Part shown: positions 16,122 through 55,043 of the stretch, piece after piece | Numbering within the stretch: the stretch's first letter is position 1 | Layout: each line of letters begins with the position of its first letter | Assembly: GCF_030384885.1 (NCBI RefSeq) | Contig: NZ_CP128615.1 | DNA from: Escherichia coli | Lineage (GTDB): Bacteria > Pseudomonadota > Gammaproteobacteria > Enterobacterales > Enterobacteriaceae | Direction: 5' to 3' (one strand) | Length of the DNA: 64,000 nt | Notes under the pieces: model-generated | Seen by the model: the letters and a program-made list of their open reading frames with translations, nothing else | What the model was told of the DNA's origin: nothing | Databases searched by the model: none | Made by a program: the position numbers and the translations under genes

Positions 16122-16137
16122 AGTTATCCGTTGCCTC

Positions 16138-19815: not shown

Positions 19816-19833
19816 TCGGGAGGCTCCCTGCTC

Positions 19834-21014: not shown

Positions 21015-21023
21015 AAATTCATC

Positions 21024-26342: not shown

Positions 26343-26373
26343 CCCGCATGGCATAGGCCTATCGTTTCCACGA

Positions 26374-27573: not shown

Positions 27574-27619
27574 GTCTGGCCTCCGGACCAGCCTCCGCTG
27601 GTCCGATTGAACGCGCGGA

Positions 27620-27672
27620 TTCTTTATCACTGATAAGTTGGTGGACATATTATGTTTATCAGTGATAAAGTG
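27620..27672. promoter_or_regulatory. tetA/tetR divergent promoter with two tet operator palindromes
   Basis: TTTATCACTGATAAG and TTTATCAGTGATAAAG palindromes in the tetA-tetR intergenic region. Confidence 0.6.
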
Positions 27673-27678
27673 TCAAGC

Positions 27679-28329: not shown

Positions 28330-28627
28330 TCAGGACCGCTGCCGGAGCGCAACCCACTCACTACAGCAGAGCCATGTAGACAACATCCCCTCCCCCTTTC
28401 CACCGCGTCAGACGCCCGTAGCAGCCCGCTACGGGCTTTTTCATGCCCTGCCCTAGCGTCCAAGCCTCACGGCCGCGCTCGGCCTCTCTGGCGGCCTTCT
28501 GGCGCTCCTGCTGCGGCGTCCGCTCGTGGGCCGTGGCGCGGGTCCGCGCGCCGGCCTCGTGCGCCTGGCGCTCGCGGGCGAGGTCCAGGGCGGCCGTCTT
28601 CACGTTCTGCCTTGCGCAGATGAGATA

Positions 28628-28665
28628 GGGGAGCCCGCAGAATTCGGAAAAAATCGTACGCTAAG
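28628..28665. repeat. Tn1721 internal 38-bp inverted repeat (end of the Tn1722 core)
   Basis: GGGGAGCCCGCAGAATTCGGAAAAAATCGTACGCTAAG; tnpA stop lies inside it. Confidence 0.8.
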
Positions 28666-31627: not shown

Positions 31628-31630
31628 GTG

Positions 31631-32191
31631 TCAGTCGTCCGTGCGGAGGTACTGGTAGAGGGTTTCCCGGCTGATGTTGAACTCGCGGGCAAGCTGCGCC
31701 TTGGGCTCGCCGGCCGTCGCTCGCTGCCGCAGGGTAGCAGCCTGCTCATCGGACAGGGCTTTCTTGCGGCCCCGGTACGCGCCACGCTGCTTGGCCAAGG
31801 CGATGCCCTCACGCTGCCGCTCGCGGATCAGGGCGCGCTCGAACTCAGCGAAGGCCCCCATCACCGACAGCATCAGGTTGGCCATCGGCGAGTCCTCGCC
31901 AGTGAACACCAGGCCCTCCTTCAGGAACTCGATGCGCACGCCGCGCTGAGTCAGCTTCTGTACCAAGCGACGCAGGTCATCGAGGTTGCGGGCCAGCCGA
32001 TCCATGCTGTGCACCACCACTGTATCGCCTTCGCGGACGAAGCTCAGCAGCGCTTCGAGCTGGGGGCGCTGGGTGTCCTTGCCCGATGCCTTGTCGGTGA
32101 ACACCTTGCTCACCTGGGTTTGTTCCAGCTGGCGTTCCGGGTTCTGGTCAAAGCTGCTGACCCGGACGTAGCCGATGCGGTGCCCCTGCAC
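31631..32191 (-). CDS. tnpR: Serine resolvase TnpR (Tn1721)
   Basis: 186 aa MQGHRIGYVRVSSFDQNPERQLEQ... with catalytic serine region and C-terminal HTH. Confidence 0.9.
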   Translation of the reverse strand: MQGHRIGYVRVSSFDQNPERQLEQTQVSKVFTDKASGKDTQRPQLEALLSFVREGDTVVVHSMDRLARNLDDLRRLVQKLTQRGVRIEFLKEGLVFTGEDSPMANLMLSVMGAFAEFERALIRERQREGIALAKQRGAYRGRKKALSDEQAATLRQRATAGEPKAQLAREFNISRETLYQYLRTDD

Positions 32192-32499
32192 GATGTCTCC
32201 TTGGTTGAAGGCGGCTTAAGTGCACTTTCTGTTCCGTTGTGCCTCAAAGCCCATTTCTGTCAGGCTGAAATCTATAACCTTCGCGGGCATGTGTCAAAAA
32301 ATGGGAAAGCAGACTCTATTCTGACGAAGCGGCGCGCCCTGCCTGACATCAAGTTAGGGTATAGCCTAGATTGACATGCGCGATGCAACCCTTAACTTGC
32401 TTGCACCTATCGTTTCCATGCTAGCTTTATCGTAACGCTCAAGAAATTGGGCTTAATGCCGAAAACAATAAAATAAAACAGCCAACCCTTGAGGTTCTT

Positions 32500-34077
32500 A
32501 TGCGCCAGAATTTACCAGTGACGGGTCGAAACTTAGAACTCCCAAAAGATGCCAATATTCTTTCGACTACCTCCCCTCAAAGCCATATCACGTACGTTAA
32601 TCCTGACTTCATTAAAATCAGTGGTTTCACTGAGGAAGAACTATTAGGCCAGCCTCACAACATCGTAAGACACCCAGATATGCCGCCTGCTGCATTTGAG
32701 CATATGTGGAGTACATTAAAATCTGGCCGCTCATGGATGGGGCTAGTAAAAAATCGCTGTAAAAATGGCGACCACTATTGGGTAAGTGCTTATGTAACGC
32801 CAATAGCTAAGAATGGTTCGATTGTTGAATACCAGTCTGTAAGGACCAAGCCTGAACCTGAGCAGGTTTTGGCTGCGGAAAAATTATATGCTCAATTGAG
32901 AAGCGGGAAGGCCGCGAGGCCGAAATTGGCTGCTAGCTTTTCCGTGAAAATACTCTTGCTCATATGGGGTAGTATTATATCAAGCGCAATGGCTGCCGGC
33001 ATGCTTACTGATACATCAATAAGCAGCTTATTGTTAGCCACTTTAATGTCAGGAAGCTTAAGCTCTGTTAGTGTTTTGGCTATTCTCTCTCCTCTTGGAA
33101 GACTGGTTGAAAGAGCCAGGAATATTTCCAATAACCCATTAAGTCAATCCCTCTACACTGGGCGCACCGATGAGTTTGGCCAAATAGAGTTTGCTTTACG
33201 AATGATGCAAGCTGAAACAGGCGCCATAGTAGGTCGCATAGGTGATGCATCAAATCGGCTTAGCGAACACACCCGAGGCCTACTAAAGGATATTGAGTCA
33301 AGCAATGTACTTACAGTTGAGCAGCAGGCAGAGACAGATCAAATAGCAACGGCAGTAAACCAAATGGTGGCAAGCATTCAAGAGGTTGCGAGCAATGCAC
33401 AGCATGCTGCAGATGCGGCCGGAAGAGCAGACACTGAGACGGCATCTGGCCAGCGTCTGGTAGCCCACACAAGCCAGTCAATCACTGCCCTTGAAGGTGA
33501 AATTAGGCAAGCCACTCAGGTTATTCATGAGCTTGAAGGTCAAAGTAACGAGATATCAAAAGTTCTTGACGTTATACGAGGGATCGCCGAGCAAACGAAT
33601 TTGTTGGCACTCAACGCAGCAATTGAGGCCGCGCGTGCTGGTGAGCAGGGGCGTGGTTTTGCTGTTGTCGCCGATGAGGTTCGCAGTCTTGCTGCTCGCA
33701 CACAGCAATCGACAACGGATATTCAAAGCATGATCAGCGCTCTACAAGAGCGAGCGCAATCCGCTGTTACAGTCATGGAGCAAAGTAGTCGGCAAGCGCA
33801 CACGAGTGTAGCTCACGCAGAGGAAGCAGCTACAGCTCTTGATGGAATTGGCCAACGCGTTAACGAAATTACCGACATGAACGCGCAAATAGCGACTGCG
33901 GTCGAGCAGCAGGGAGCAGTAAGTGAAGACATAAACCGCAGTATTATCAATATACGCGATGCTGCTGATACCAATGTACAGACCGGGCAGAATAATTTGC
34001 AAAGTGCGAAATCTGTCGCTCAGTTAACTAGCGCTCTGAGCGAACTGGCAAAACAGTTTTGGGAAAAACGAGGATAA
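32500..34077 (+). CDS. Methyl-accepting chemotaxis-like protein (Tn1721 orfI / mcp)
   Basis: 525 aa with PAS-like N-terminus, two hydrophobic segments and a C-terminal MCP signalling domain ([30 protein letters not shown]). Confidence 0.8.
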
Positions 34078-34228
34078 CGCTTTTCAGTATCTCGACAGGG
34101 ATAACTTACTTTACCATCGGTTATCCCTTTTAGCCGCACAAATTTTAGCCATGGCTTTTCAGGAAGTCAGGGCTATCAGAATGGCCTTAGAAAGCCTAGT
34201 CAAAGAGCTGTCACGAGAACACCGTTAG

Positions 34229-34266
34229 CTTAGCGTACGATTTTTTCCGAATTCTGCGGTTCCCCC
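34229..34266. repeat. Tn1721 outer 38-bp terminal inverted repeat
   Basis: Reverse complement of GGGGGAACCGCAGAATTCGGAAAAAATCGTACGCTAAG. Confidence 0.8.
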
Positions 34267-34300
34267 TTAATTTCAGTATCTGTTATTACAGTTGGGTATC

Positions 34301-34372
34301 GGTGATGCTGCCAACTTACTGATTTAGTGTATGATGGTGTTTTTGAGGTGCTCCAGTGGCTTCTGTTTCTAT
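34301..34372 (+). mobile_element. IS1 left-end fragment (first 72 bp)
   Basis: GGTGATGCTGCCAACTTACTGATTTAGTGTATGATGGTG... then abuts a Tn3-family inverted repeat. Confidence 0.85.
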
Positions 34373-34806
34373 GGGGTCAGTTTGGATATCGAAAATTATT
34401 GTACGTTAAGGTCGTTTTTTGACCTTTCTACTTTAGCTGGCCTCAGCCGACGAAACTTACCGGAGGCCGGTATTCTGTTGTTTTTCCAGATGTAATCGCC
34501 TGTCAGATTGATATGCTCCCAGCCTAACGGCGACAAATGTGACAGCAGTTGCTCGTTGATCTTCACCCCTTTACGCTTCAGGGCATCGACCGCTCTTTCC
34601 ATATACACTGTATTCCACAGCGAGATAGTTGCTGTCAGCAGCGTCAGTCCACTGGCGCGGTAGCTCTGATTTTCCGGTTTACGATCCCTGATTTCACCCA
34701 GACGGTGCAGGAATACCGCGCGCGCTAGAGAGAGCTCCCATCGCTGCGCGACGGGCCCCAACCGGAGAACCAAGTTAGTTACAGCATTCAGATGAAAATT
34801 CATCAT
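34373..34806 (-). pseudogene. Tn3-family transposon end: 38-bp IR (34373-34410) plus C-terminal fragment of TnpA
   Basis: IR GGGGTCAGTTTGGATATCGAAAATTATTGTACGTTAAG; ORF fragment ...[17 protein letters not shown]...[17 protein letters not shown] matches TnpA C-termini. Confidence 0.7.
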
Positions 34807-35250
34807 AAAACCGGCGCCGGTTTGCCAGCCAGGAGCCCCTCCCCACCACTGAAAAGCGCCGCCGCCCCCGGCCGAAGGCCGGGAGTAGTGTCGCTTTTAA
34901 TGATGGGTGTTGTAACTACTCTTCGTCATCTCTGTGAGTAGTGTCGCGGTAAGTTCTGGGATACACGCTCGTAAGCGGCCCTAACGGCCCGCTAACGCGG
35001 AGATACGCCCCGACTGCGGCTGTCGCCTTGCCGGGACCACTCCGACCGCGTACAGAGGCATCTGAGCCGTTTTTAGCGGGTATAGCTTTGCAGGGAAGGG
35101 GGTGGGTGAGGCAGAACCTGTCAAAACAGCAGCCGGCTGCGCCGGGCGACGGCGCCATTTACCCGCAGTACTCCATTCAACTTCAGCTGGCGCCTCCATG
35201 CCGCTGACGCGGCATTATCTATACTTTAAGTCTGGCCACTGGAGGTAACC

Positions 35251-35335
35251 ATGTGCGGACGTTTTTCTCAGTCTATGACGCGGGAAGAGTATCTTTCTCT
35301 CCTCGCCAATGAAGCCGATCGAAATATTGCCTACG
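35251..35335 (+). pseudogene. N-terminal fragment of an SRAP (YedK/HMCES-like) peptidase gene, truncated by IS903
   Basis: MCGRFSQSMTREEYLSLLANEADRNIAY; the MCGRF N-terminus is the SRAP hallmark; cut at the IS903 end. Confidence 0.5.
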
Positions 35336-35463
35336 GGCTTTGTTGAATAAATCAGATTTCGGGTAAGTCTCCCCCGTAGCGGGTTGTGTTTTCAGGCAAT
35401 ACGCACGCTTTCAGGCATACCTGCTTTCGTCATTTTGTTCAGCGCTCGTACCAGGGCCATAGC
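35336..35463 (-). mobile_element. IS903 right-end segment (part of an IS903 copy split by Tn5393)
   Basis: 128 bp identical to the last 128 bp of IS903 in reverse orientation; continues at 42169-43102. Confidence 0.85.
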
Positions 35464-35496
35464 GGGGTCGTTTGCGGGAGGGGGCGGAATCCTACG

Positions 35497-38382
35497 CTAA
35501 GGCTTTGGCCAGCGATATTCTCCGGTGAGATTGATGTGTTCCCATCCGAGCGGCGAAACATGGGCCAAGAGATCGGGCGATAGCAGCTTTCCATCGCGTT
35601 TCTGGTTTGCAACGACCTCGCCGAGCTTCATGGTGTTCCAGAAGATGATGATGGCGGCGAGCAGATTCATGCCGGCGATGCGGTAATGCTGGCCTTCGGC
35701 GGAACGGTCGCGGATTTCACCGCGGCGGTGGAAGCTGATTGCCCGCTTCAGCGCATGATGAGCTTCGCCTTTGTTGAGCCCGATCTGGGCACGCCGTTGG
35801 AGTTCGGCATCCAGAATCCAGTCGATCATGAACAGGGTGCGCTCGACGCGACCGACTTCCCGCAGGGCTGTCGCGAGCTCGTTCTGCCGCGGATAGGAGG
35901 CGAGTTTCCGCAGAATCTGGCTTGGCGCGACGGTCCCGGCAGCAATGGTGGCGGCGATGCGCAGGATGTCGGGCCAATTGCGCTCGATCATGGCTTGGTT
36001 GACCTTTCCGCCGATCAACGCTCGCAGGTGCGCCGGGGCGGCCGACGGATTGAACGCGTAGAGCCGTTTGGATGGCAGGTCGCGGATGCGCGGAGCGAAC
36101 CGGTAGCCGAGAATGGCACATGCGGCAAAGACGTGATCGGTGAAGCCGCCCGTGTCGGTGAACTGCTCGCGGATATGGCGTCCAGCATCGTTCATCAGCA
36201 GGCCATCGAGGATGTAAGGCGCTTCGCTTGCCGTTGCAGGAATCACCTGGGTTGCGAACGGCGCATATTGGTCGGAGACGTGGCTATAGGCTTTCAGGCC
36301 CGGGGTATTGCCATATTTCGCGTTGACCAGGTTCATGGCCTCACCTTGCTCTGTAGCGACGAAGAACTGTCCGTCGCTCGAAGCCGACGTGCCCATGCCC
36401 CAGAACCGGGCCATGGGTAACGCTGCCTGTGCCTCGACCACCATGGCCAGCGCCCGGTCATAGGCTTCGCCCTCGACATGCCACCGTCCAATGCGGATCA
36501 ATTCCCAGAAGGTGTGGGTGTTTGTCGCATCCGCCATTTTGCGCAAGCCGAGGTTGATCCCTTCCGCCAAGATAACGTTCATTAGCCCGATCCGGTCAGC
36601 GCAGGGTGCTCCTGTGCGCAGATGGGTGAACGCTTCGGTGAAGCCGGTCGCCGCATCCACCTCCAGCAGGAGATCGGTGATGCGCGTGGGCGGGATCTGC
36701 TTGTAGAGATCGAGCACCAGATCTTCGGCGCCTGTCGGCGCGGCGGCTTCGAGTTTCTCGATATGCAGAACGCCGTTTTCAATCGACCCGCCCGGGATCG
36801 TGCCTGCGCGAGCGGCACGGCCAAGCTCGCGCAACCGCATGTCGAGGCGAGCTTGCCGGTCTGCCAGCCATTCCTCCGGCCGCAATGGCACAGCGAGACG
36901 ACCGCCTTCCGCGATGGATTGTGCCGGAACGAGTGCGTGTTTCAGATCGCCATAGCGCCGGGACCTAGTAAGCCAGACATCTCCGGAGCGGAACGCATCG
37001 CGCAGATGGAACAGCACCGCGATCTCCCATAGGCGAGCGTCGCCAGCCCTCTGGGCCCGAAGGTGGCGATGCCATTTCGAGCTGGGCCGCAAGAAGCTGG
37101 TCATCGCGGCATCGTTCAAACCGGTACGAAGGGCCGTCACCGCTTCCAGAAGCGGCAGTGCAACGGGCGCAGCTCGCAGATCGAGCAGGCGCAACATGCG
37201 TGGAGCGTATCGGCGGAAGCGGTGATAACCGTCGAGCACATGATTGAGCGGATCGTCGGCCATGGTGGCGGTCAGCCTGGTTGCCATTGCAACAAGGGTT
37301 TTTAAGCCGTCCCACCCTGACCCACTCGCGATGACATCGCCCAGCGGCTGGCCATCATCCTGTGCATCGACCAGGGCGCCCCCGATCTCGGCGAAGGATT
37401 TCAGGGTGTCACGCACCACCCCCGCTTCGTCTGCGACCTTTGCATGGCAAATACGCTCCGAAGCACGGTAGAGACGGCCGACGATCCGGTCGTGGGTTTC
37501 GACCACTGCGTCGGCCAACATCGCCTGCCATTCCGAGACGCAAACAGCCAAGATCGCAAGCCGCCTGTCCTCCGGGAGATCGCGCATGCCGTCGGCATAA
37601 TACCGTTCACCCTGCCTGCGCAGACGAGTCACCCGATGGGCAGGAACGCCGGCAAGCAGATCCTCGGGGAGATCGATGCGTTGCAGATATTCGAGCCGGT
37701 CGAGCAGCCGGTTGGCCGACGAAGAGTTCGAGCCAGGCTCGAACTGGCGCAGCCACACAAAACGGGTCACCCGATCATCAGCCGTCTCCTCGAGCAATGC
37801 CAGCAACTGTTCTCGGATCGACATAGGCAGCCGACTGGCGATCCTCGTCTCGATGCGTCGCTCGGCATCGACGAGAGCCGCGGCACAAAGCCGCTCGATC
37901 GTGGATGTCGCGGGAAGGACAGTGCGGGTGCGTCGGCACTCGGCTACGAAGCGACGGGCGATATCCTCGTTCGACACCGCCATCTCGGCTTCTCGGAACA
38001 ACCATTCCTTCAGCTCGCTCGCACCACGTCCGGAGAAGGTGCGGAAGCCGTAGAGCCCCCGTAACTCGGCAAGATGCTCGTGCCGTGTTTCCTCGCGGGC
38101 AGCATAGTCTACGAGATCGTCGGCACCCAGGCCAAGCTGCGCTCCGATAAATTCGATGACCTCTGCAGGGATCAGTTCGCCTGGAGCCAGCACCCGGCCG
38201 GGATAGCGCAGGACACACAATTGCAGGGCGAAGCCGAACCTGTTGTGAGCGCGCCGACGCAGCCTGATATGCCCAAGGTCTTCATCACTCAGCGTATAGT
38301 GCTTGAGCAAATCCGTCTGTGAAGTCGGCAAGCGCAACAGCGCGTCTTTCTGCCGATCGGTTAGAGTGACGCGACGCGGCAT
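35497..38382 (-). CDS. tnpA: Tn3-family transposase TnpA (Tn5393)
   Basis: 961 aa MPRRVTLTDRQKDALLRLPTSQTDLLKHYTLSDEDLG... Confidence 0.9.
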   Translation of the reverse strand: MPRRVTLTDRQKDALLRLPTSQTDLLKHYTLSDEDLGHIRLRRRAHNRFGFALQLCVLRYPGRVLAPGELIPAEVIEFIGAQLGLGADDLVDYAAREETRHEHLAELRGLYGFRTFSGRGASELKEWLFREAEMAVSNEDIARRFVAECRRTRTVLPATSTIERLCAAALVDAERRIETRIASRLPMSIREQLLALLEETADDRVTRFVWLRQFEPGSNSSSANRLLDRLEYLQRIDLPEDLLAGVPAHRVTRLRRQGERYYADGMRDLPEDRRLAILAVCVSEWQAMLADAVVETHDRIVGRLYRASERICHAKVADEAGVVRDTLKSFAEIGGALVDAQDDGQPLGDVIASGSGWDGLKTLVAMATRLTATMADDPLNHVLDGYHRFRRYAPRMLRLLDLRAAPVALPLLEAVTALRTGLNDAAMTSFLRPSSKWHRHLRAQRAGDARLWEIAVLFHLRDAFRSGDVWLTRSRRYGDLKHALVPAQSIAEGGRLAVPLRPEEWLADRQARLDMRLRELGRAARAGTIPGGSIENGVLHIEKLEAAAPTGAEDLVLDLYKQIPPTRITDLLLEVDAATGFTEAFTHLRTGAPCADRIGLMNVILAEGINLGLRKMADATNTHTFWELIRIGRWHVEGEAYDRALAMVVEAQAALPMARFWGMGTSASSDGQFFVATEQGEAMNLVNAKYGNTPGLKAYSHVSDQYAPFATQVIPATASEAPYILDGLLMNDAGRHIREQFTDTGGFTDHVFAACAILGYRFAPRIRDLPSKRLYAFNPSAAPAHLRALIGGKVNQAMIERNWPDILRIAATIAAGTVAPSQILRKLASYPRQNELATALREVGRVERTLFMIDWILDAELQRRAQIGLNKGEAHHALKRAISFHRRGEIRDRSAEGQHYRIAGMNLLAAIIIFWNTMKLGEVVANQKRDGKLLSPDLLAHVSPLGWEHINLTGEYRWPKP

Positions 38383-38507
38383 ACATGTTCCTTTTTCAAA
38401 ATCTGATAGCGTTCAAGACGCTTTGTTTATGAAGCTGGTTGAGATACATTTCCAGAGGTCAATGCAATCGTGGCCGAAGCGCCGCCTCAAACCAACGTTT
38501 GTGATAC

Positions 38508-39122
38508 ATGCTGATCGGATATGCCCGCGTCTCCAAAGCCGATGGCTCGCAGTCTCTCGACCTGCAGCACGACGCCTTGCGCGCCGCAGGTGTCGAACGG
38601 GACAATATCTATGATGATCTTGCTTCCGGCGGTCGTGATGATCGCCCTGGCTTGACTGCCTGCCTCAAGTCATTGCGTGACGGCGATGTGCTGGTGGTCT
38701 GGAAGCTCGATCGCCTCGGACGATCGCTTGCCCATCTGGTCAACACGGTGAAGGAGCTGTCAGACCGCAAGATCGGCCTGCGGGTTCTGACTGGAAAGGG
38801 CGCTCAGATCGACACCACGACTGCGTCCGGTCGCATGGTGTTCGGAATCTTCGCCACCTTGGCCGAGTTCGAGCGGGATCTGATCCGAGAGCGCACCATG
38901 GCGGGTCTCGCCTCCGCGAGAGCGCGCGGTCGCAAGGGCGGACGAAAATTCGCGCTCACCAAAGCTCAGGTGCGTCTCGCGCAAGCCGCCATGGCCCAGC
39001 GCGATACTTCAGTTTCCGATCTCTGCAAGGAACTCGGCATCGAGCGCGTCACTCTCTACCGATATGTCGGTCCCAAAGGCGAGCTCAGAGACCATGGAAA
39101 GCATGTTCTCGGACTTACGTAG
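38508..39122 (+). CDS. tnpR: Serine resolvase TnpR (Tn5393)
   Basis: 204 aa MLIGYARVSKADGSQSLDLQHDALRAAGV... Confidence 0.9.
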   Translation: MLIGYARVSKADGSQSLDLQHDALRAAGVERDNIYDDLASGGRDDRPGLTACLKSLRDGDVLVVWKLDRLGRSLAHLVNTVKELSDRKIGLRVLTGKGAQIDTTTASGRMVFGIFATLAEFERDLIRERTMAGLASARARGRKGGRKFALTKAQVRLAQAAMAQRDTSVSDLCKELGIERVTLYRYVGPKGELRDHGKHVLGLT

Positions 39123-39165
39123 TGGACTTGCCTCGGTTTCGTTCCGGTCTTTTTGAGAGCATTAT

Positions 39166-39462
39166 TTGTTATCAAGGAGACCATATATGTCATTAAAGCA
39201 TAGTGATGAATTTAAGCGTGATGCAGTTCGCATAGCACTCACTAGTGGCTTAACACGCCGTCAAGTTGCGTCAGATTTAAGTATTGGGCTTTCCACGCTT
39301 GGGAAATGGATCGCATCAATTTCCGATGAAACTAAAATTCCTACCCAAGACACTGATCTTCTGCGTGAGAATGAACGTTTACGCAAAGAGAACCGTATCC
39401 TTCGGGAGGAGAGGGAGATATTAAAAAAGGCAGCAATATTTTTCGCAGTACAAAAGCTGTGA
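39166..39462 (+). CDS. IS1133 transposase OrfA
   Basis: ...MSLKHSDEFKRDAVRIALTSGLTRRQVASDLSIGLSTLGKWI... Confidence 0.8.
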   Translation: MLSRRPYMSLKHSDEFKRDAVRIALTSGLTRRQVASDLSIGLSTLGKWIASISDETKIPTQDTDLLRENERLRKENRILREEREILKKAAIFFAVQKL

Positions 39463-40316
39463 GATTTCAGTTTATTACGGATTACCGTGGCTCTCTCTCA
39501 CGTTCACGCATATGTCGTTTGATGGGCGTAACAGATCGTGGTTTACGTGCATGGAAACGCCGTCCTCCATCACTGCGCCAGCGTCGTGATCTTATACTTC
39601 TAGCGCATATACGTGAGCAGCATCGGTTGTGTTTGGGGAGCTATGGTAGGCCGCGTATGACAGAAGAGTTGAAAGCGCTGGGCCTGCAGGTTGGGCAGCG
39701 TCGGGTTGGACGTTTGATGCGCCAGAATAACATTACAGTTGTTCGAACGCGTAAATTCAAACGGACAACGGATAGTCATCATACCTTCAACATTGCACCG
39801 AACCTATTAAAACAAGACTTTAGCGCAAGCGCACCCAACCAGAAATGGGCAGGCGATATCACTTATGTTTGGACCAGAGAAGGATGGGTCTATCTTGCTG
39901 TTATCCTTGACCTGTATTCCCGTCGCGTGATTGGCTGGGCAACAGGTGATCGATTAAAGCAGGATCTTGCATTAAGGGCACTGAATATGGCGTTGGCTTT
40001 ACGCAAACCACCACCGGGTTGTATTCAACACACAGACCGTGGGAGCCAATATTGCGCTCATGAATATCAAAAGCTACTGCTCAAACATCAATTGCTGCCG
40101 TCCATGAGCGGGAAAGGCAATTGTTTTGATAACTCCGCAGTAGAAAGCTTCTTTAAATCATTAAAGGCTGAGTTGATTTGGCGCAGACACTGGCAAACAA
40201 GGCGAGATATTGAGATTGCAATCTTCGAATATATAAATGGCTTTTATAATCCACGCCGAAGACATTCAACACTCGGCTGGAAATCGCCGGTGGCATTTGA
40301 GAAAAAAGCCGCTTAA
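39459..40316 (+). CDS. IS1133 transposase OrfB (DDE)
   Basis: 285 aa with DDE-region motifs (WAGDITYVWT...DLYSRRVIGW...HTDRGSQY). Confidence 0.85.
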   Translation: MRFQFITDYRGSLSRSRICRLMGVTDRGLRAWKRRPPSLRQRRDLILLAHIREQHRLCLGSYGRPRMTEELKALGLQVGQRRVGRLMRQNNITVVRTRKFKRTTDSHHTFNIAPNLLKQDFSASAPNQKWAGDITYVWTREGWVYLAVILDLYSRRVIGWATGDRLKQDLALRALNMALALRKPPPGCIQHTDRGSQYCAHEYQKLLLKHQLLPSMSGKGNCFDNSAVESFFKSLKAELIWRRHWQTRRDIEIAIFEYINGFYNPRRRHSTLGWKSPVAFEKKAA

Positions 40317-40422
40317 AATGAGAGATAGACCGGAACACAACCGGTGCAAGTCCATAGCAACTCGTTTCTTTTCGCAGGTTGAGCCACCTCCGCGCTTCAT
40401 CAGAAAACTGAAGGAACCTCCA

Positions 40423-41226
40423 TTGAATCGAACTAATATTTTTTTTGGTGAATCGCATTCTGACTGGTTGCCTGTCAGAGGCGGAGAATCTGGTGATTTT
40501 GTTTTTCGACGTGGTGACGGGCATGCCTTCGCGAAAATCGCACCTGCTTCCCGCCGCGGTGAGCTCGCTGGAGAGCGTGACCGCCTCATTTGGCTCAAAG
40601 GTCGAGGTGTGGCTTGCCCCGAGGTGATCAACTGGCAGGAGGAACAGGAGGGTGCATGCTTGGTGATAACGGCAATTCCGGGAGTACCGGCGGCTGATCT
40701 GTCTGGAGCGGATTTGCTCAAAGCGTGGCCGTCAATGGGGCAGCAACTTGGCGCTGTTCACAGCCTATCGGTTGATCAATGTCCGTTTGAGCGCAGGCTG
40801 TCGCGAATGTTCGGACGCGCCGTTGATGTGGTGTCCCGCAATGCCGTCAATCCCGACTTCTTACCGGACGAGGACAAGAGTACGCCGCAGCTCGATCTTT
40901 TGGCTCGTGTCGAACGAGAGCTACCGGTGCGGCTCGACCAAGAGCGCACCGATATGGTTGTTTGCCATGGTGATCCCTGCATGCCGAACTTCATGGTGGA
41001 CCCTAAAACTCTTCAATGCACGGGTCTGATCGACCTTGGGCGGCTCGGAACAGCAGATCGCTATGCCGATTTGGCACTCATGATTGCTAACGCCGAAGAG
41101 AACTGGGCAGCGCCAGATGAAGCAGAGCGCGCCTTCGCTGTCCTATTCAATGTATTGGGGATCGAAGCCCCCGACCGCGAACGCCTTGCCTTCTATCTGC
41201 GATTGGACCCTCTGACTTGGGGTTGA
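40423..41226 (+). CDS. strA: Aminoglycoside 3''-phosphotransferase APH(3'')-Ib
   Basis: TTG start; NRTNIFFGESHSDWLPVRGGESGDFVFRRGDGHAFAKIAP...; 267 aa; stop overlaps strB start. Confidence 0.95.
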   Translation: MNRTNIFFGESHSDWLPVRGGESGDFVFRRGDGHAFAKIAPASRRGELAGERDRLIWLKGRGVACPEVINWQEEQEGACLVITAIPGVPAADLSGADLLKAWPSMGQQLGAVHSLSVDQCPFERRLSRMFGRAVDVVSRNAVNPDFLPDEDKSTPQLDLLARVERELPVRLDQERTDMVVCHGDPCMPNFMVDPKTLQCTGLIDLGRLGTADRYADLALMIANAEENWAAPDEAERAFAVLFNVLGIEAPDRERLAFYLRLDPLTWG

Positions 41227-45181: not shown

Positions 45182-45673
45182 GTCTGTGTTGTAAAATGGC
45201 GCCGAAAGCCCGGCGTAGCCGGTTGCCGGGCTATAAATTCTGCCACCCTACCCCCTGCCCTGATTAGCCTTAACTCGCGAACAGCAATGAAGAAGTCAAA
45301 GTAATCCCTTTTAACCCCGGTGAGCGGGCTTTACGGCGTTTACGACGTAAAGGGCGTGATTTCCGGGGCCTAAGCGGCGGCAGCTTGCTGCTGACGCTTA
45401 GGGGGATGTTCATCAACTATTTCAGCGACACCAGGGAACTTAACACGGTAGCTGCAAAGCCCTAATCCCGCTCACCGCCACGCAGCTGCCGTACGTCCCC
45501 CACGGGGGTGCGCAGTGCTGCGCGCGGGAACGGCGGCCCGTCTGCGGGACGCGGCGCCGTACTGCGCGTTAGCGGCCGCACGCGGCCGGTTACGGGGGAC
45601 ACTCCGCCATACGACCAGCGACCCGCTGAGCTGCACAATCCACAGATAACACAAGCTACATACATGTCGATAT

Positions 45674-46245
45674 GGGAATCGGCCCACCTTGCCGGGCGCC
45701 GGTGCCGTGTGGAAATCCGCCCACCTTGCCGCGCGCCGGTGCCGTGTGGGAATCCGCCCACCTTGCCGCGCGCCGGTGCCGTGTGGGAATCCGCCCACCT
45801 TGCCGGGCGCCGGTGCTGTGTGGAAATCCGCCCACCTTACCGGGCGCCGGTGCTGTGTGGAAATCCGCCCATCTTGCCGGGCGCCGGTGCCGTGTGGGAA
45901 TCCGCCCACCTTACCGGGCGCCGGTGCCGTGTGGGAATCCGCCCACCTTACCGGGCGCCGGTGCCGTGTGGGAATCCGCCCACCTTACCGGGCGCCGGTG
46001 CTGTGTGGAAATCCGCCCACCTTGCCGCGCGCCGGTGCCGTGTGGGAATCCGCCCACCTTGCCGCGCGCCGGTGCCGTGTGGGAATCCGCCCACCTTGCC
46101 GGGCGCCGGTGCTGTGTGGAAATCCGCCCACCTTACCGGGCGCCGGTGCTGTGTGGAAATCCGCCCATCTTGCCGGGCGCCGGTGCCGTGTGGGAATCCG
46201 CCCACCTTACCGGGCGCCGGTGCTGTGTGGAAATCCGCCCATCTT
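45674..46245. repeat. Tandem array of about 15.5 copies of a 37-bp repeat (GAATCCGCCCACCTTGCCGCGCGCCGGTGCCGTGTGG with point variants)
   Basis: Contiguous head-to-tail repeats without spacers; downstream of a truncated repA paralog, i.e. in the position of an incC/incA-type iteron array. Confidence 0.85.
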
Positions 46246-47379: not shown

Positions 47380-49300
47380 TTATCGTCACGCTGTTAAATA
47401 TGTCGCGGTAGGGATACCCGTTACCGGATACCCCCCGCACAGATCCCGGCGTGCGCGATTTACGCACCGGGCTCCTGCCTCGGGTGTCTGGCGGTGAACC
47501 GCTCCACAGGCCATGGATGAAGAACCCGAACCCTTGGTAGCCATGCGGCTGCCAGTTTGTTTGCTTTCGTCCAGGTCGTATCATCCTTCTGGCTCCTGCG
47601 CCTGAGCGCCCGGCGCCAGAGGTTTGTTACGTGTGTCCTGAACTTCTGCATGGTGGGGAAGTTGCCCGGTACCGAGTGATAGTTCAGGTATCCCTGAACC
47701 ACTCTCCTGAGCCATTTTCCCTGTTCGGGGATTGAGTAATGCCAGCGCCTTCGCAGACCGTCTTTGATGGCTTTCAGAGTTGCCGTCATCCGATCCCGGC
47801 GGGTCTTTCGTATCAGCATGAACCTGCCGTTGCGATCTTTCCCGCTGATGTGCGTGAACCCGAGGAAGTTGAACGTTTCTGGTTTGCCTTTTCCCCTGAT
47901 GGCACGGTTTTCGGCAGCGAAGCGGCCGAACTCCATCAGACGGGTTTTCTCCGGGTGAACCGTGAGTCCGAACTCCCTCAGTCTGCGCTGCATGGCTATA
48001 CGGAAGCGCCGGGCATCGTATCGTTTGTCGAACCCGATGACGATGTCATCGGCGTATCTGACCATTACCACATTGCCTGTGGCATAGCGACGTCGCCACT
48101 GATGCGCCCACAGATCGAAGACGTAGTGGAGGTATATGTTTGCCAGCAGCGGTGAGATGACCGCACCCTGTGGGGTGCCTTCCTCCGTTGCTCGCCATTG
48201 ACCCTCCTCCAACGTCCCGGCTGTGAGCCACTTACGTATGAGCCTGATTACGCTCCGGTCGCCGATCCGATGCTCTGTGAACCTGATCAGCCATTCGTGG
48301 CTCACCCTGTCGAAGAACTGACTGATGTCGGCATCCAGTACCCAGTTTACGTTAGTGCGTACCAGCCCTGTGGCCAGTGCGTCCAGTGCATCGTGCTGGC
48401 TTCGCCCGGGTCTGAACCCGTATGAGAACCCCATAAAGTCGTTTTCATAGACTGCGTTCAGGATTTTCACCAGCGCATACTGGACGATCTTGTCCTCCAG
48501 CGAGGCGATGCCGAGCGGGCGTTGTTTTCCATCCGCTTTTGGGATGTAGTGACGCCTGCCGGGCTGCGCCCTGTAGCTGCCCTAATGTAGCCTCCGGTGC
48601 AGATCTGTTATGTTGTTCTTCATGTTTCCGGCGTAGTCCATCCACCTGATGCCATCCACTCCGGCGGCCGCTTTCCTGCTCAGGGAGAGGAATGCGGCTT
48701 CCAGTGCTTCGACTGTCAGCAGGTGGAACAATGCTGTAAACCGTTCTTTCTTCCGCTGCTTCGCAGCTTCCCGCACGCGTGACAGCCTCTGTGACATGCT
48801 TTCCCGGCTCTGTGTCCGGCGCATGTGTGGCTGTTCCGCGTTCCCCTTGGCCCCGCTCCTTCGCTCCACTGACTCCGCTCCTTTCGGGTTGTTCGCCTGC
48901 TTCGCCGCTACTATGAGCGAGTCCGACTTCTCCTCTCCGTACATCACCGGCTATGACTCCTCGTCTTCCCGGTGCGGGCCGTCTCCGACACTGGCAGATG
49001 GTCAGAGGGGAGATCTCCCGGTTCCCGCGTAGAGATCGTATTGACATGCCAGGGTCTCAGACCCCGCCGGGTCCATGTGGCACTCGCAGTATCGCACCCT
49101 ATGATGTTGCCTTCCGTTAACAGTACAACGTCGGCACCCGGTAATTTAATATACATTTCGTGGCTCAATGGCTGGCCTGTCAACACCCCTGTCAACGCTT
49201 CGCCCCATACCTCGCGGTATGCAACGCATGACTCGGGGACCTTGTGGATTGCTGGTCCTTCAATGGTCGGGGACTTTCACCCCTTGATCTCTACCGGTCT
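47380..49300 (-). mobile_element. Group II intron (bacterial, ORF in domain IV), boundaries approximate
   Basis: Encodes an intron-type reverse transcriptase/maturase; domain-V-like hairpin GAGCCCGGTGCGTAAATCGCGCACGCCGGG near 47458-47490 just 3' of the ORF; a GTGCG 5'-consensus-like motif is seen but is too close to the ORF to be the certain 5' end. Confidence 0.55.
47460..48947 (-). pseudogene. Group II intron reverse transcriptase/maturase, split by a frameshift near 48470-48600
   Basis: N-terminal ORF 48582-48947 (domain 0: ...AAAGVDGIRWMDYAGN...) and C-terminal ORF 47460-48470 (RT motifs incl. VRYADD and maturase X-domain VQGYLNYH) are in different frames. Confidence 0.7.
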
Positions 49301-49352: not shown

Positions 49353-49784
49353 ATGAAACTACAACTTTTCAGCACCGGGAAAGAACTCCCGCCACAGGCC
49401 CATCCATTGTTTGCCGATCTGGCCAGCTGCGGTTTTCCCAGCCCTGCTGCTGACTATGTCGAGTCCGATCTGGATCTCCATGATTACTGCATACGGCATC
49501 CGAGCGCGACGTACTACCTGCGTGCCAGCGGAGACAGCATGGCCGACGGCAGTCTGTACAATGGCGATCTGCTGGTTGTGGACAGTGCTGAAAAGCCGCG
49601 GCACGGCGATATCGTTGTCGCCAGCATGCAGGGGGAGTTTACGGTGAAACGGCTTCTGCTGACGCCGCGACTGACGCTGCAGCCCATGAATGCCTCCTGG
49701 TCGCCGATTTATCCTGATCCCGACGAGCTGGATATCTTTGGCGTCGTCACGCATATCATCCACCGCCCGAGGGAGATGTACTGA
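49353..49784 (+). CDS. umuD: UmuD/MucA/ImpA-family SOS mutagenesis protein (S24 peptidase)
   Basis: ...[20 protein letters not shown]...[22 protein letters not shown]...[10 protein letters not shown]; the 270-aa track ORF is an upstream read-through. Confidence 0.85.
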
Positions 49785-51055
49785 TGTTTGCCCTGGCCGA
49801 TGTGAACAGCTTCTATGCCAGCTGTGAACGTGTTTTCCGCCCGGATTTGAAAGGAAAGCCGATAGTCGTCCTGAGCAACAACGACGGGAATGTAATCGCT
49901 CGCAGTGCCGAGGCGAAGCCCTGGATCAAAATGGAAACTCCGTGGTTTCAGATAAAAAACGAAAGATACCCGGAAAAAATATATGCGTTTTCAAGTAACT
50001 ATGAACTTTATGCCTCGATGTTGGCGCGCGTGATGAACAGCCTGGAGGAACTGGCCCCCAGAGTGGAACAGTATTCAATTGATGAGATGTTCCTCGATTT
50101 GACCGGCGTGGAGCACTGTATGGAGCTTGAGGACTTCGGCCGGCAGCTGCGTCAGCACGTGTATGACTGTACCCACCTGACCATTGGCGTGGGCGCCGGA
50201 CCAACGAAGACCCTCGCAAAATCAGCCCAGTGGGCCTCAAAAGAGTGGAAACAGTTTCGTGGCGTACTTGCTCTGACCAGGGGAAATCCGCAGAGAACGC
50301 GGAAACTGCTTTCACTGCAGCCGGTTGAAGAAATCTGGGGGGTGGGTAACCGTATTGCACGCAAGCTGAATGTACTGGGCATTAAGACCGCGCTCGATCT
50401 CGCCCTGACGAACCCGGCCTTCATCCGCAAAAATTTTTCTGTGGTCCTTGAGCGAACGGTACGGGAACTGAACGGGGAAAGCTGCCTTTCGCTTGAGGAA
50501 GCCCCTCCGACGAAACAGCAAATTGTCTGCAGCCGCAGTTTTGGCGTGAAGATCACGGAGTACGAGTCACTCCGTCAGGCTATCTGTCAGCACGCAGAGC
50601 GGGCCTCTGAAAAACTGCGTAAAGAGCACCAGTATTGCCGGCATATTTCCGTTTTCATCAAAACGTCTCCGTTCGCCATTAAAGAGCCTTACTACGGCAA
50701 CGTGGCTACGGAAAAACTTCTTACACCCACTCAGGACACCAGGGACATCATTGCAGCCGCTACAACGGCTCTGGAGCGTATCTGGAGGGATGGGCACCGG
50801 TATGCCAAAGCCGGAGTTATGCTGAATGACTTCACCGGCTCCGGCGTTTCGCAGCTGCAGCTGTTCGACGAACGCCCGCCACGCCCTTACAGTGCTGAGC
50901 TGATGAAGGTTCTGGACGGGATCAACAACTCAGGGCTGGGTAAAGTATGGTTTGCGGGGCGGGGTATTGCCCCGGAATGGCAGATGAAACGGGAGATGCT
51001 TTCTCCTGCTTATACGACACGATGGTCAGATATTCCTTCAGCGAAACTGGCGTAA
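49784..51055 (+). CDS. umuC: UmuC/MucB/ImpB-family Y-family translesion DNA polymerase
   Basis: 423 aa [41 protein letters not shown]...; start overlaps umuD-like stop. Confidence 0.9.
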
Positions 51056-51059
51056 AACT

Positions 51060-51140
51060 TTGGCGATTTCACCTTGAAATTCTCAGCCTAAACTGCCTAA
51101 TTACAATAAGTTAGATGTGAAATCGCCATGGCGAAATTAT
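51060..51140. promoter_or_regulatory. P1-type partition site parS
   Basis: Heptamer ATTTCAC/GTGAAAT and hexamer TCGCCA/TGGCGA boxes flanking an AT-rich (IHF-like) core, immediately downstream of parB. Confidence 0.6.
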
Positions 51141-52114
51141 TGACTCAAATTTCTGTCAAGGACCTCGTTGATAGCCTTGTCCAGTTCATCCTGAATCACT
51201 TTTGACATACGGCTAAACTCATAAGTCAGCGTACGCCCTTTCACACGCTTACGCGCGAACTTGTCCTTTTCTTCAAAAGACCAGAGTGGGGAAACCACTG
51301 ACTTTTCCTTGGGAGATGGATCTATCAATGCCTGAGATGCCTGAGAAATCAGCTTCAGTATACTGGCTTTCTGTTCGTCTTCTGGTCGCTCGCCTTCACT
51401 CAAAATTGCATCGAGCTGAGCTGATACAGACTGAATGAGTTCTTCAGGCGTTAATCCCTTTTCACTGAGTTTTTCATTAACTTCTAAAAGAAGTTTATAG
51501 TCACTAAACGATAGCTCCGACTGAACCGGGAACAGAGAAATCAAGTCTTGCGGTACGGCCGCCGCCTGCAGCGCCCTGGTAACTTTAGCTTGAGATAACC
51601 CCTCCAGTTCAGCAATTTCCTTTTGATTAAATCCGGACTCTTTAAGAGCGATCAATCTCAGGCCAATCTCCCGAAGATTATGTTCTTTAGCTGTCTGGAT
51701 ATCTTTAGCCAGTTGGCGAGCTTCATCAGCTGATAAATGCTCTTCGGTAACCATTACATCAAGGCCTGTACGGACAAAAATTGCTGAGGCTCGCCGTCTT
51801 GAACCATCCAGTATCTCAATCCTTTCACTTTGCTTAATACCAATACAGGGAAAGAACTGCTGAAACTTAATCGTCTGGATAATGGATTTCAGGGATTCCC
51901 TGGTCAGTGCAAGTTGATCTCTTCCGTTGTTTTCCTGGTTTACGAAGGTCTTACTTTCAACTTCAGATGCAGGCACCCGAACAAACCTGAACGTTACCTT
52001 CCTGCCGGTTTTTAAGGTAAATACCTGGCTTCTACCGGTGTCCGTCATTTCCGCAATTGACGCCTGGGTATTTAACTGTCTGCCGATGGTTTTTCTTTTC
52101 TCATTCGACATCAC
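51137..52114 (-). CDS. parB: P1-type partition protein ParB
   Basis: 325 aa; ...EILDGSRRRAS...GLSQAKVTRALQAA...RFARKRVKGR... strongly resembles P1 ParB. Confidence 0.9.
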   Translation of the reverse strand: MMSNEKRKTIGRQLNTQASIAEMTDTGRSQVFTLKTGRKVTFRFVRVPASEVESKTFVNQENNGRDQLALTRESLKSIIQTIKFQQFFPCIGIKQSERIEILDGSRRRASAIFVRTGLDVMVTEEHLSADEARQLAKDIQTAKEHNLREIGLRLIALKESGFNQKEIAELEGLSQAKVTRALQAAAVPQDLISLFPVQSELSFSDYKLLLEVNEKLSEKGLTPEELIQSVSAQLDAILSEGERPEDEQKASILKLISQASQALIDPSPKEKSVVSPLWSFEEKDKFARKRVKGRTLTYEFSRMSKVIQDELDKAINEVLDRNLSQ

Positions 52115-53316
52115 ATACCTCCGTTAGTACGAATGAACTCGATGCGATCAAAGACTGCCTTCGCAAAGTCTTCCGCTGCTGATTTTGCGCTTTTTAGTGC
52201 CTCTGTACTTCCATCATAGGTTGCTGGATTTGCTGAAATAACTGTGTCAAAAGTCTCCCCACAACGTTCGAAACCATCCAGTCTTGGCAGAACCATGTCT
52301 AGCATATCGGCACCGAAAACCTCTTTGGCCTGACTATGGCAAATTTTGTGATCAGACTTGTTCAGGATCTTGGACATGAAGCCGACATTACCGATGAGAT
52401 TGCAGGTGTGCCCATCCATTTCGATGGAATCTATGAGGGCAGGGAGGCTGGCCACAAACTTCAGGGAAGAATGAAAATCAACCGTCGCCGGTGGAAGAGG
52501 GGTCAACATCAGGTCTGCCGCCCCAATGCAGTTTTTCAGGAACGCATCAAGGTGAGGACCACTATCAAGGAAAATAAAGTCGTAGTCATGCTGGAGCTTG
52601 TCGATAATGTTCTCTTTAAGCACCGCATGAATATTTTTCCCTGGCAGATGTTCTTCACACAATCCCTTCCAGCCTTCAGCAAGGAATGCATCGTCAATGG
52701 AAGCGGGGATTACATCAACACCAGGGATAATAGACGGTACTATAAAATCGGAAAGTAATTCTTCACGAGACACGTTCTGGAGCATGGCCTGAGCAGCCGT
52801 ATTTTCAACCAAGCCCACTGAATTCTCATGGCTCAGGAACATTGTCAGAGATGCCTGCGGATCGAAATCGATGGCCAGAATACGCAGGTCTTCGAACAGA
52901 AGCTGAGGATGAGCTCGAAAAGCATGTGATAATGAAGCGGTAGAAACTGTCTTGGAACCACCACCTTTAAGATTACATACAAAAATCGTAAAGGCTTTAT
53001 CGAAGCGATCCCTGTACTTCGGTACTTTACGATGGTTATACAGATCGATGACATTCTGAATCGTCATCGCGTATTTCATCGTATTACCAGAAGGTTTCTT
53101 TTTAAAAATGTAGCCACCGGCTTCCATTTCGGACACAGCATACTCAACACTGCCTTTACTGAGCTTAGGCAGCTTATACAGAGCGGCTTTGCTGTATTCC
53201 TGATAGAACTCGGTAAGCTTCAATTCCTCTTTTTGCTGTCGGATACTTTCGCTCAAAGATGTCAGAAGCTTACCTGCACGTGTAGCGACTTTCCGTAACT
53301 GCTCAATATTGTCCAT
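52111..53316 (-). CDS. parA: P1-type partition ATPase ParA (type Ia)
   Basis: 401 aa; Walker A-containing NLKGGGSKTVSTASLSHA and N-terminal DNA-binding extension as in P1 ParA. Confidence 0.9.
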   Translation of the reverse strand: MDNIEQLRKVATRAGKLLTSLSESIRQQKEELKLTEFYQEYSKAALYKLPKLSKGSVEYAVSEMEAGGYIFKKKPSGNTMKYAMTIQNVIDLYNHRKVPKYRDRFDKAFTIFVCNLKGGGSKTVSTASLSHAFRAHPQLLFEDLRILAIDFDPQASLTMFLSHENSVGLVENTAAQAMLQNVSREELLSDFIVPSIIPGVDVIPASIDDAFLAEGWKGLCEEHLPGKNIHAVLKENIIDKLQHDYDFIFLDSGPHLDAFLKNCIGAADLMLTPLPPATVDFHSSLKFVASLPALIDSIEMDGHTCNLIGNVGFMSKILNKSDHKICHSQAKEVFGADMLDMVLPRLDGFERCGETFDTVISANPATYDGSTEALKSAKSAAEDFAKAVFDRIEFIRTNGGM

Positions 53317-53707
53317 TTATCACCTCATGACGTTTTTTGTCATTTTGAACAAAAAGTGTCATGTTGCAAGAAAAAAATCATATTGTTTTGATTTCGCTCT
53401 CAACAGAAGGGGGATGAAGCTCGACGGGCGTGCTACTAAATCACACTGCAGCAACACGCAGACGCACTTTTGACCATCAACAGCAACTCATACAAAAGGG
53501 CTTTGAGAAAGGTATTCAACTTGCAAGACAGGAGAGTCATTCAGAAGGATTCTGATTTTAGTTACGACCAGTGCAATGCTGAGCCTTATGTATCAGCGCT
53601 CGCCGCAGCCATGTAACCGAGCGTAGCGAGCGAACTGGCGAGGAAGCGAAGAGGAACCGTTCCGGCAGATAGCTCTTACGCTCAGCACAAGAAGAGTTTT
53701 CCATCCT

Positions 53708-54125
53708 CTGTGGGAAACAGGTCAACTTTAATGGACGCTCCGGACTATGGGAAACAGGTCAACTTCGCGGACGGCCCGGACTATGGGAAACAGGTCAACT
53801 TCACGGGCGGCCGGGAGTGTGGGGAACAGGTCAACTTCGCGGACGGCCCGGATTATGGGAAACAGGTCAACTTCGCGGGCGGCCGGGACTGTGGGAAACA
53901 GGTCAACTTTGCAGACGGCCCGGACTGTGGGAAACAGGTCAACTTCGCGGGCGGCCGGGAGTGTGGGGAACAGGTCAACTTCGCGGACGGCCCGGACTAA
54001 GGGAAACAGGTCAGCTTCTCGGACGGCCCGGACTATGGGAAACAGGTCAACTTCTCGGACGGTCGGGAGTGTGGGAAACAGGTCAAGTTAGGCAAGCACT
54101 ATGGGAAACACAGCAAGTTCAGTAT
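53708..54125. repeat. Array of about 11 direct 36-bp repeats (TGGGAAACAGGTCAACTT core); iteron/copy-control locus downstream of repA
   Basis: Regular 36-bp period read directly; located between repA stop and parA start. Confidence 0.85.
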
Positions 54126-54176: not shown

Positions 54177-55043
54177 CTATTGTTTTTTATCAAGAAAATT
54201 AAACAGCAAGCGACCATCTTCTTCAGTGGTATATGTTACCTTTAATGGCGTCTTCTCATTAATTTTCTTCAGAGCAGGTTCCAGGAAGGTACGCTTCATT
54301 TCAGCAATATTGTTTTTCTGCGAGGCAGGGAGCATAAACCTTTCACATAACCAGTCATGTGTGGTGATCCAGACACCAGTGCTCCGGAACTGACACAGGC
54401 TTTCATAAAGCCGGATGACACGAACACTATTAAGCTGGCCACAGTCATAGAGAGAATAGGTAGTGAACTGGGAGGTTAAGCCGACCAGGAATGGCATGAC
54501 CTTGTAGTTAAATTCAATCTGCCAGGAACCCCGGCCTCGCTTCATTCCTGCTTCAGCCAGCCACGGACGTTTAACTTCTTCAAACTCACCTTCTTTTGGA
54601 TAAAAGGTAACCGTTGATTCGCCCAGAGCATTTACCCCAGCCTTCACATCACGACTGGCGACAGACGTAGCGACATTGAAGTATTTGACGTAATCGGAAA
54701 CGCTGATTTTGAAGAGCGGCAATACGTCAGAGTCATCTTCCTGGCTGTCATTAAAATAGGCCTGCATGAGGCATAACCACAGCACACGTTTTGCCTGAAG
54801 AGGCAGGTAATATGCAGCTTCGGTCAATTCGTTAGATTGCTTTATACTGGCGCGTTTTTTAAACGTTTTAGTAGCTGGCAAGAGTGCTTGAGTATCCATT
54901 TCAATGCCTATGGGTAAATTTTTACCCACCCATAATGACAGTGAAAACAGAAATTGCAAGCTATCGCGATACTTATCCACCGGAAAAATCTGCACTTTAT
55001 CCACAAGTGGATAATTGAGAACTGAACTTGACCTCTTTCCCAT
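54177..55043 (-). CDS. repA: Rep_3-family replication initiator RepA (RepE of F-like)
   Basis: 288 aa; ...IKQSNELTEAAYYLPLQAKRVLWLCL...VIRLYESLCQFR... parallels F RepE. Confidence 0.85.
   Translation of the reverse strand: MGKRSSSVLNYPLVDKVQIFPVDKYRDSLQFLFSLSLWVGKNLPIGIEMDTQALLPATKTFKKRASIKQSNELTEAAYYLPLQAKRVLWLCLMQAYFNDSQEDDSDVLPLFKISVSDYVKYFNVATSVASRDVKAGVNALGESTVTFYPKEGEFEEVKRPWLAEAGMKRGRGSWQIEFNYKVMPFLVGLTSQFTTYSLYDCGQLNSVRVIRLYESLCQFRSTGVWITTHDWLCERFMLPASQKNNIAEMKRTFLEPALKKINEKTPLKVTYTTEEDGRLLFNFLDKKQ

Follow-up and report, generated by a model that had tools for sequence, protein, structure and literature searches.

We analysed a window of 64,000 nt (one stretch of Escherichia coli contig NZ_CP128615.1; all coordinates below are positions in it) whose minus strand carries the genes parA and parB and a centromere, parS. 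This cassette is very probably the partition (active segregation) module of an IncR plasmid backbone: a type Ia ParABS system of the P1par family, closest to the parABS of the plasmid pSLT. An earlier note on this DNA had placed a P1-type cassette at 51060–53316, and parA, parB and parS were all found there; that span holds both genes, and its start at 51060 clips only BoxA4, one of the boxes of parS. The parABS of IncR plasmids is an already known, ordinary module of a widespread resistance-plasmid backbone, and the sole mildly new element of this analysis is a prediction, made from sequence, that IncR, pSLT and P1 form one partition-specificity (incompatibility) species.

Genes and protein domains of the cassette

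The cassette shows all those features of P1-family (type Ia) ParABS systems that can be tested on a sequence, which supports the P1-family reading. The parA–parB operon is followed directly by parS in the window, the same ParABS gene order as in P1. The N-terminal extension of ParA reported in the earlier note corresponds to the Pfam family HTH_54 ('ParA helix turn helix domain'; residues 15–105, E = 1.4e-37) and is followed by an AAA_31 domain. The deviant Walker A motif (KGGGSKT at residue 117) is intact, and both it and the Walker B motif (FIFLDSGP at residue 247) are in register with P1 ParA. Residues 3–398 match the structure of P1 ParA (3EZ2) with an E-value of 1.9e-190; the match to the P7 ParA structure (3EZ9) has an E-value of 9e-150.

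The open reading frame (ORF) of parB was listed from a GTG at 52114, but we prefer the ATG at 52111, as it has a GGAGG upstream and agrees with the RefSeq gene model; this ATG overlaps the stop codon of parA (TGATG). The protein is assigned to PF08775 (the P1-type C-terminal domain; residues 195–320, E = 1.3e-50), matches TIGR00180, and matches the structures of P1 ParB(142–333) (1ZX4 and 2NTZ, E = 1.5e-61). P1 ParB has the same helix-turn-helix (HTH) segment, EGLSQAKVTRALQAA, and the same C-terminal FARKRVKGR. An aspartate is found at the position of P1 D288, which we take to be the residue that discriminates ParB specificity: the local sequence is FEEKDKFARKRVKGR here and FEDKDRFARKRVKGR in P1, so that F284-E-D-K-D288-R-F of P1 aligns to F-E-E-K-D-K-F of the IncR protein (the numbering is our own, counted from residue 142 in the 1ZX4 alignment).

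The parS centromere

The entire 81-bp gap between the convergent genes parB and umuC is centromere. A site with heptamer and hexamer boxes had been proposed directly 3' of parB, and it is indeed there: it starts 2 nt past the parB stop codon and aligns without gaps to the parS of P1, whose reference record annotates the site box by box and was used as the alignment reference (Table 1). Identity to P1 is unevenly distributed: 37 out of 39 positions agree in the ParB boxes and nine out of 13 in the site similar to that of integration host factor (IHF), but only eight out of 31 in the spacers, which is about random. Such a distribution is expected where a protein-binding architecture, and not sequence similarity in general, has been conserved. 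The 20-nt 'parS-small' core, ATTTCAAGGTGAAATCGCCA, is shared unchanged with P1 and occurs once in the window, and a search of the window allowing up to three mismatches gave three matches, all of them within parS, when 0.38 were expected; parS is therefore not a chance find. The AT-rich core that had been described is AT-rich relative to its surroundings (66.7% A+T for the stretch from BoxA1 to BoxA2 versus 48.5% for the window), although less so than the corresponding stretch of P1 (80.6%). When the cassette of this window, a Klebsiella relative and pSLT are compared, the variable positions fall only in the spacers, the IHF site or BoxA4; BoxB1, BoxA1, BoxA2, BoxA3 and BoxB2 are invariant within this lineage.

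One feature of this parS has no counterpart in P1. An extra, inverted BoxB abuts BoxA1, making the palindrome TCGCCATGGCGA. BoxA1 and this extra box add up to the 12-mer GTGAAATCGCCA, which is thus present twice in parS. The copy on the BoxA1 side is inverted relative to the copy made by BoxA3 and BoxB2, and both face inward across the IHF site. In pSLT the extra box is one base off (TCGCCG). The two facing 12-mers may give this lineage a more symmetric partition complex than that of P1.

Table 1. Coordinates of the partition cassette and of its immediate neighbours in the window
Feature	Position	Strand	Description
parA	53316..52111	-	401 aa; type Ia partition ATPase with N-terminal HTH domain
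parB	52111..51137	-	324 aa; predicted centromere-binding protein
parS	51052..51134	-	83 bp; ungapped alignment to annotated P1 parS
BoxB1	51134-51129	-	TCGCCA
extra inverted BoxB	51123..51128	+	TCGCCA
BoxA1	51123-51117	-	ATTTCAC
IHF-like site	51113-51101	-	TAACTTATTGTAA; plus strand TTACAATAAGTTA; CAA-N4-TTA core kept
BoxA2	51080-51074	-	ATTTCAA
BoxA3	51072-51066	-	GTGAAAT
BoxB2	51066-51061	-	TCGCCA
BoxA4 (degenerate)	51058-51052	-	GTTTTAC
candidate ParA operator (parOP)	53326..53363	-	imperfect inverted repeat CATGACACTTTTTGT / ACAAAAAACGTCATG, just 5' of the parA ribosome-binding site
candidate par promoter	53377..53403	-	TTGAGA, 15-nt spacer, TATGAT; relaxed scan only; weak, inferred
rep iteron array	53711-54086		36 bp x 10.4; between the rep gene and parA
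Rep3-family initiator gene	55043..54177		upstream of parA
umuC (Y-family polymerase)	49784..51055		convergent with parB; preceded by umuD

Candidate control region upstream of parA

Upstream of parA we identified a candidate operator and a candidate promoter. The operator candidate has arms of 15 nt (53363–53349 and 53340–53326) around an 8-nt centre, with 13 out of 15 positions pairing, and its DNA fold has an energy of -9.1 kcal/mol (z = -2.5). The repeat was spotted by eye and was not reported by the automated repeat search; folding and alignment back it. The repeat is part of a block, TTGCAACATGACACTTTTTGTTCAAAATGACAAAAAACGTCATGAGGTGATAAATG, that is kept in pSLT and in the Klebsiella relative (91% identity in ParB) and aligns with the annotated promoter/operator region of P1. 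The arm sequences themselves differ from those of P1, as expected from the divergence of the ParA HTH domain; ParA is predicted to bind the IncR repeat. A standard sigma-70 scan (16–18 nt spacing) of the region upstream of parA found no site, and the promoter candidate was obtained with a relaxed scan; its position aligns with the annotated Ppar of P1.

Relatives within the P1par family

Nine family members were compared for ParA and ParB identity and for the discriminator residue (see Table 2 for identities). The alignment with P1, P7 and pMT1 that the earlier note had proposed puts the IncR proteins in the P1-like half of the family, with a ParB aspartate and a BoxB (TCGCCA) of P1 type. Its description of the Par proteins as close to those of phage P1 is right about the family, but the closeness needs qualifying, since identity to P1 is 69% for ParA and 54% for ParB. 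Likewise, its assignment to type Ia and to the P1/P7 lineage stands as a family assignment and can be narrowed to the P1 subclade, as distinct from the P7/pMT1 subclade, with pSLT as the nearest of the relatives compared.

Table 2. Amino acid identity of Par proteins of the family to those of the IncR cassette
Relative	ParA	ParB
pSLT	97.8%	90.1%
P1	69.3%	54.3%
Pantoea megaplasmid	69.1%	56.0%
Shigella pINV	66.7%	52.2%
P7	56.2-58%	43.5-44%
pMT1	55.8%	42.6%
Klebsiella IncFIB	56.2%	42.4%

The family splits into P1-like members (P1, Shigella pINV, Pantoea, pSLT and the IncR cassette) and P7-like members (P7, pMT1 and Klebsiella IncFIB). The P1-like members compared all have Asp at the D288 position, and their BoxB2 is TCGCCA, except for pINV (TCGCCT). 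The P7-like ParB proteins have other residues at this position (Arg in P7, Asn in pMT1 and Lys in IncFIB(K)) and a 2-aa insertion in the C-terminal domain, and their BoxB differs as well (BoxB2 is TTCCCA in P7; pMT1 has TCACCA).

The pSLT parABS (parVP region, PSLT052/053, on the virulence plasmid of Salmonella Typhimurium) is the closest relative compared. Both cassettes encode Par proteins of 401 and 324 aa, share BoxB1, BoxA1, BoxA2, BoxA3 and BoxB2 with identical sequence and spacing, conserve the operator block upstream of parA, and have the same gene order, including a convergent gene (samB, the umuC homologue of pSLT) that ends inside parS. They differ in their replicons (IncFIB/IncFII in pSLT, IncR here), in BoxA4 (ATTTCAA in pSLT, GTTTTAC here) and in several spacer bases; UmuC of the window is only 76% identical to SamB.

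With P1, the type Ia paradigm (structures 3EZ2, 1ZX4 and 2NTZ), the IncR cassette shares operon order, domain architecture, the position of the IHF-like site, TCGCCA in both BoxB hexamers, and the ParB recognition segment and D288 surroundings. The wider order is also the same: rep, iterons, parA, parB and parS here; repA, incA, parAB and parS in P1. Compared with P1 ParB, the IncR protein is shorter by 9 aa (about four residues of the N-terminal region are missing, as are the final four). The central spacer is less AT-rich than in P1 (67% versus 81%), and BoxA4 is degenerate. The more distant P7, pMT1 and Klebsiella IncFIB(K)-type systems share the gene order and the logic of parS, with BoxA/BoxB arms around an AT-rich centre. 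The par loci of Shigella pINV/pWR100 and of Pantoea belong to the P1-like subclade, with Asp at the D288 position and a TCGCCA-type BoxB; their parS spacing and arm organisation differ, however, whereas the IncR centromere keeps the exact P1 register.

Distribution and signs of function

The 2.45-kb region of the cassette matched 2,195 plasmids in PLSDB, 434 of them at an identity of at least 99%. Klebsiella accounts for most of these matching plasmids; Salmonella, Escherichia and Enterobacter come next, and other genera are represented as well. One identical record was checked and is typed IncR; its backbone elements stand in the canonical IncR order (group II intron reverse transcriptase, umuD, umuC, parB, parA, iterons and rep), and the window is collinear with the IncR backbone over about 43.3–58.4 kb. 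The parAB genes have been listed as a component of the IncR backbone (PMC9412624, PMC11047700, PMC12310702). A 2025 review of IncR plasmids is inconsistent here, stating in one place that most of them lack typical par modules and in another that they commonly carry parA and parB (PMC12310702); our PLSDB search supports the latter statement.

Both par ORFs are intact and of a length typical for the family. Compared with pSLT, the ratio of non-synonymous to synonymous substitution rates (dN/dS) is 0.034 for parA (dS 0.35) and 0.17 for parB (dS 0.28), values that point to purifying selection. Given intact ORFs, dN/dS values well below 1 and wide conservation, we infer that the partition system is active, as the earlier note had suggested.

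Predicted specificity and incompatibility

The IncR cassette probably has P1-type specificity. Both of its BoxB hexamers are TCGCCA, and its ParB has the P1-type aspartate and neighbouring residues, from which the same specificity and the same partition-incompatibility species as those of P1 and pSLT are predicted. For pWR100, which has the same BoxB, Sergueev et al. reportedly found in 2005 both P1 specificity and incompatibility with P1. The view that BoxB2 and the ParB aspartate decide P1 specificity and partition incompatibility, restated from papers of the Austin laboratory, was used to predict that a Pantoea plasmid is incompatible with P1 (PMC10999674). Indirect evidence comes from P1 parS labelling with ParB fused to green fluorescent protein (GFP): discrete foci were seen in S. 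Typhimurium LT2 that carried pSLT and no P1 parS, and they were lost when pSLT was cured (PMC4697819). The parS-small core of pSLT is identical to the core in the window. Taken together, these observations make P1-type specificity of the IncR cassette likely. The broader proposal, that IncR plasmids, pSLT-type virulence plasmids and P1-type phage-plasmids share a single ParB/parS specificity species, is one that we favour by a narrow measure and with less assurance.

Alternative readings

Some observations weigh against our reading of the cassette. The heptamer BoxA4 (GTTTTAC) has a degenerate sequence, and the stop codon of the convergent gene umuC falls within it. The promoter candidate has a short spacer (15 nt), with nothing found by the standard scan, and in folding the operator repeat has only a moderate advantage over shuffled sequence (z = -2.5). 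With an identity of only 54% to P1 ParB, the IncR ParB could have a different specificity even though BoxB is identical. Finally, the foci were observed with pSLT, and its parS departs from the one described here at several positions in the spacers and in BoxA4.

Three other interpretations were considered. The cassette might be an inactive relic on an IncR replicon that owes its stability to toxin–antitoxin and resolution systems. The review sentence denying typical par modules to most IncR plasmids (PMC12310702) speaks for this, as do the loss of parAB in some Salmonella IncR hybrids (PMC11047700) and the degenerate BoxA4. But neither ORF is truncated, and their motifs are intact; dN/dS is 0.03 and 0.17 over about 0.3 synonymous substitutions per site; the spacers vary within the lineage but boxes B1, A1, A2, A3 and B2 do not; and the same review says elsewhere that parA and parB are common on IncR plasmids (PMC12310702). 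We regard a relic as very improbable and rejected this reading.

It is less probable still, indeed hardly credible, that the ParB homologue is mainly a VirB-like transcriptional anti-silencer or regulator instead of a centromere-binding partition protein. One deposited annotation names the identical protein 'Virulence regulon transcriptional activator VirB', and the VirB structure 3VWB matches ParB residues 137–257 (E = 1.2e-22); this match, however, is limited to the HTH core. The protein also has the P1-type C-terminal domain that binds BoxB, a translationally coupled ParA and an adjacent cognate parS, and so is not an orphan; a VirB-like role was rejected.

There is a negligible chance that the cassette is a SopABC system of F type, or belongs to some other ParABS family, and was misread as P1-like: ParA has weak, sub-threshold matches to the SopA and RepA partition models, but the SopA model scores 64.2 bits against a cut-off of 725 and the SopB-type model PRK13698 scores 67.8 against 274, identity of the cassette proteins to their Sop-like counterparts in phage N15 is only 23% (SopA-like) and 35% (SopB-like), compared with 69% and 54% to P1, and no tandem sopC-like array of 43-bp repeats lies 3' of parB, where the 81-bp gap before umuC holds a parS in P1 register. 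Model scores, identities and the array-free gap thus rule out a SopABC assignment. The earlier note had named grouping with SopAB and loss of ParB box spacing as observations that would speak against a P1-type cassette; the proteins group with P1, and the box spacing is retained without gaps. We therefore keep the assignment to the P1 family.

Proposed mechanism

The established P1 paradigm suggests how the IncR locus would work. Transcription of the parA–parB operon would start at a promoter near 53.40 kb and proceed leftwards, and ParA would repress its own operon by binding the inverted repeat at 53326–53363 with its N-terminal HTH domain. ParB dimers would bind parS in two ways, the HTH domain reading the BoxA heptamers and the C-terminal dimer domain reading the BoxB hexamers. 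Host IHF would bend the AT-rich centre of parS and so keep the two arms together in a single complex, and ParB bridging BoxA and BoxB across the arms would nucleate a larger complex that recruits more ParB. The ParB N-terminus would then stimulate the ATPase activity of nucleoid-bound ParA-ATP, leading to the directed separation of plasmid copies into both daughter cells.

Genomic context of the cassette

The stop codon of umuC (51053–51055) lies inside BoxA4 of parS (51052–51058); it is conceivable, as a speculation, that ParB spreading from parS could thereby affect umuDC expression. In the P7-like plasmid pMT1 of Yersinia pestis, a remnant of the 3' end of umuC (aa 383–422) is found just past that plasmid's own parS (locus L006, 2891–3008), which suggests that the parS–umuC junction is old. 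A group II intron (47460–49277, minus strand) lies directly upstream of umuD, an arrangement also seen in other IncR backbones; it was identified by a match to Rfam RF02005 at 49052–49277 (186.6 bits) and by a reverse transcriptase/maturase ORF annotated in the identical plasmid.

A second tandem array is found in the IncR backbone at 45673–46245, with 15.5 copies of a 37-bp unit, TGGGAATCCGCCCACCTTGCCGGGCGCCGGTGCCGTG, at 93% matches. This unit and the 36-bp rep iteron both start with TGGGAA and have 21 out of 36 positions in common. It might serve as a second iteron array or in copy control, or be the centromere of a different system. As ParB centromeres, both this array (37 bp x 15.5) and the one at 53711–54086 (36 bp x 10.4) were rejected, because they contain no BoxA or BoxB. 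Spurious long ORFs cross the 45673–46245 array, and several ORFs called across the 53711–54086 iterons, including one annotated as 'hypothetical protein', look like repeat artefacts.

Salmonella IncR/pSLT hybrids that lack the IncR parAB carry a parBA segment of pSLT (PMC11047700). This may hint at redundancy of the two cassettes, or at recombination between near-identical cassettes.

The rest of the window holds defence genes and accessory genes. A BREX type 1-like phage-defence cluster (5910–21950, minus strand) encodes a BrxL Lon-like protease, PglZ, a PglX-type methyltransferase, BrxC and a WYL-domain regulator; a GmrSD/DUF262-like nuclease gene is inserted between pglX and brxC, and two short ORFs (19834–21014) also belong to the cluster. 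At 22–2156 (plus strand), genes for an OLD-family TOPRIM/AAA_15 nuclease and a UvrD-like helicase lie one after the other, in this order; they resemble a Gabija-type defence pair, and the nuclease ORF, the first of the pair, may be cut by the edge of the window. The mosaic accessory region at 25458–41226 contains two Tn3-family transposases, an IS3-type integrase, an APH phosphotransferase gene, a PAS/HAMP/MCP-domain protein, and an MFS efflux gene that adjoins an EamA transporter gene (typical resistance-plasmid cargo).

Implications

The cassette marks its part of the window as IncR backbone, and the module would account for the stable inheritance of IncR multidrug-resistance plasmids, which are low-copy and non-conjugative. 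These results leave the current understanding of type Ia partition unchanged. If the predicted sharing of one specificity species is true, IncR, pSLT-type and P1-type elements, three medically relevant types, would be mutually partition-incompatible, and their coexistence in clinical Enterobacteriaceae would be shaped by this incompatibility. The widely used P1 ParB-GFP/parS tool for DNA labelling would then also give false foci in strains that carry IncR plasmids.

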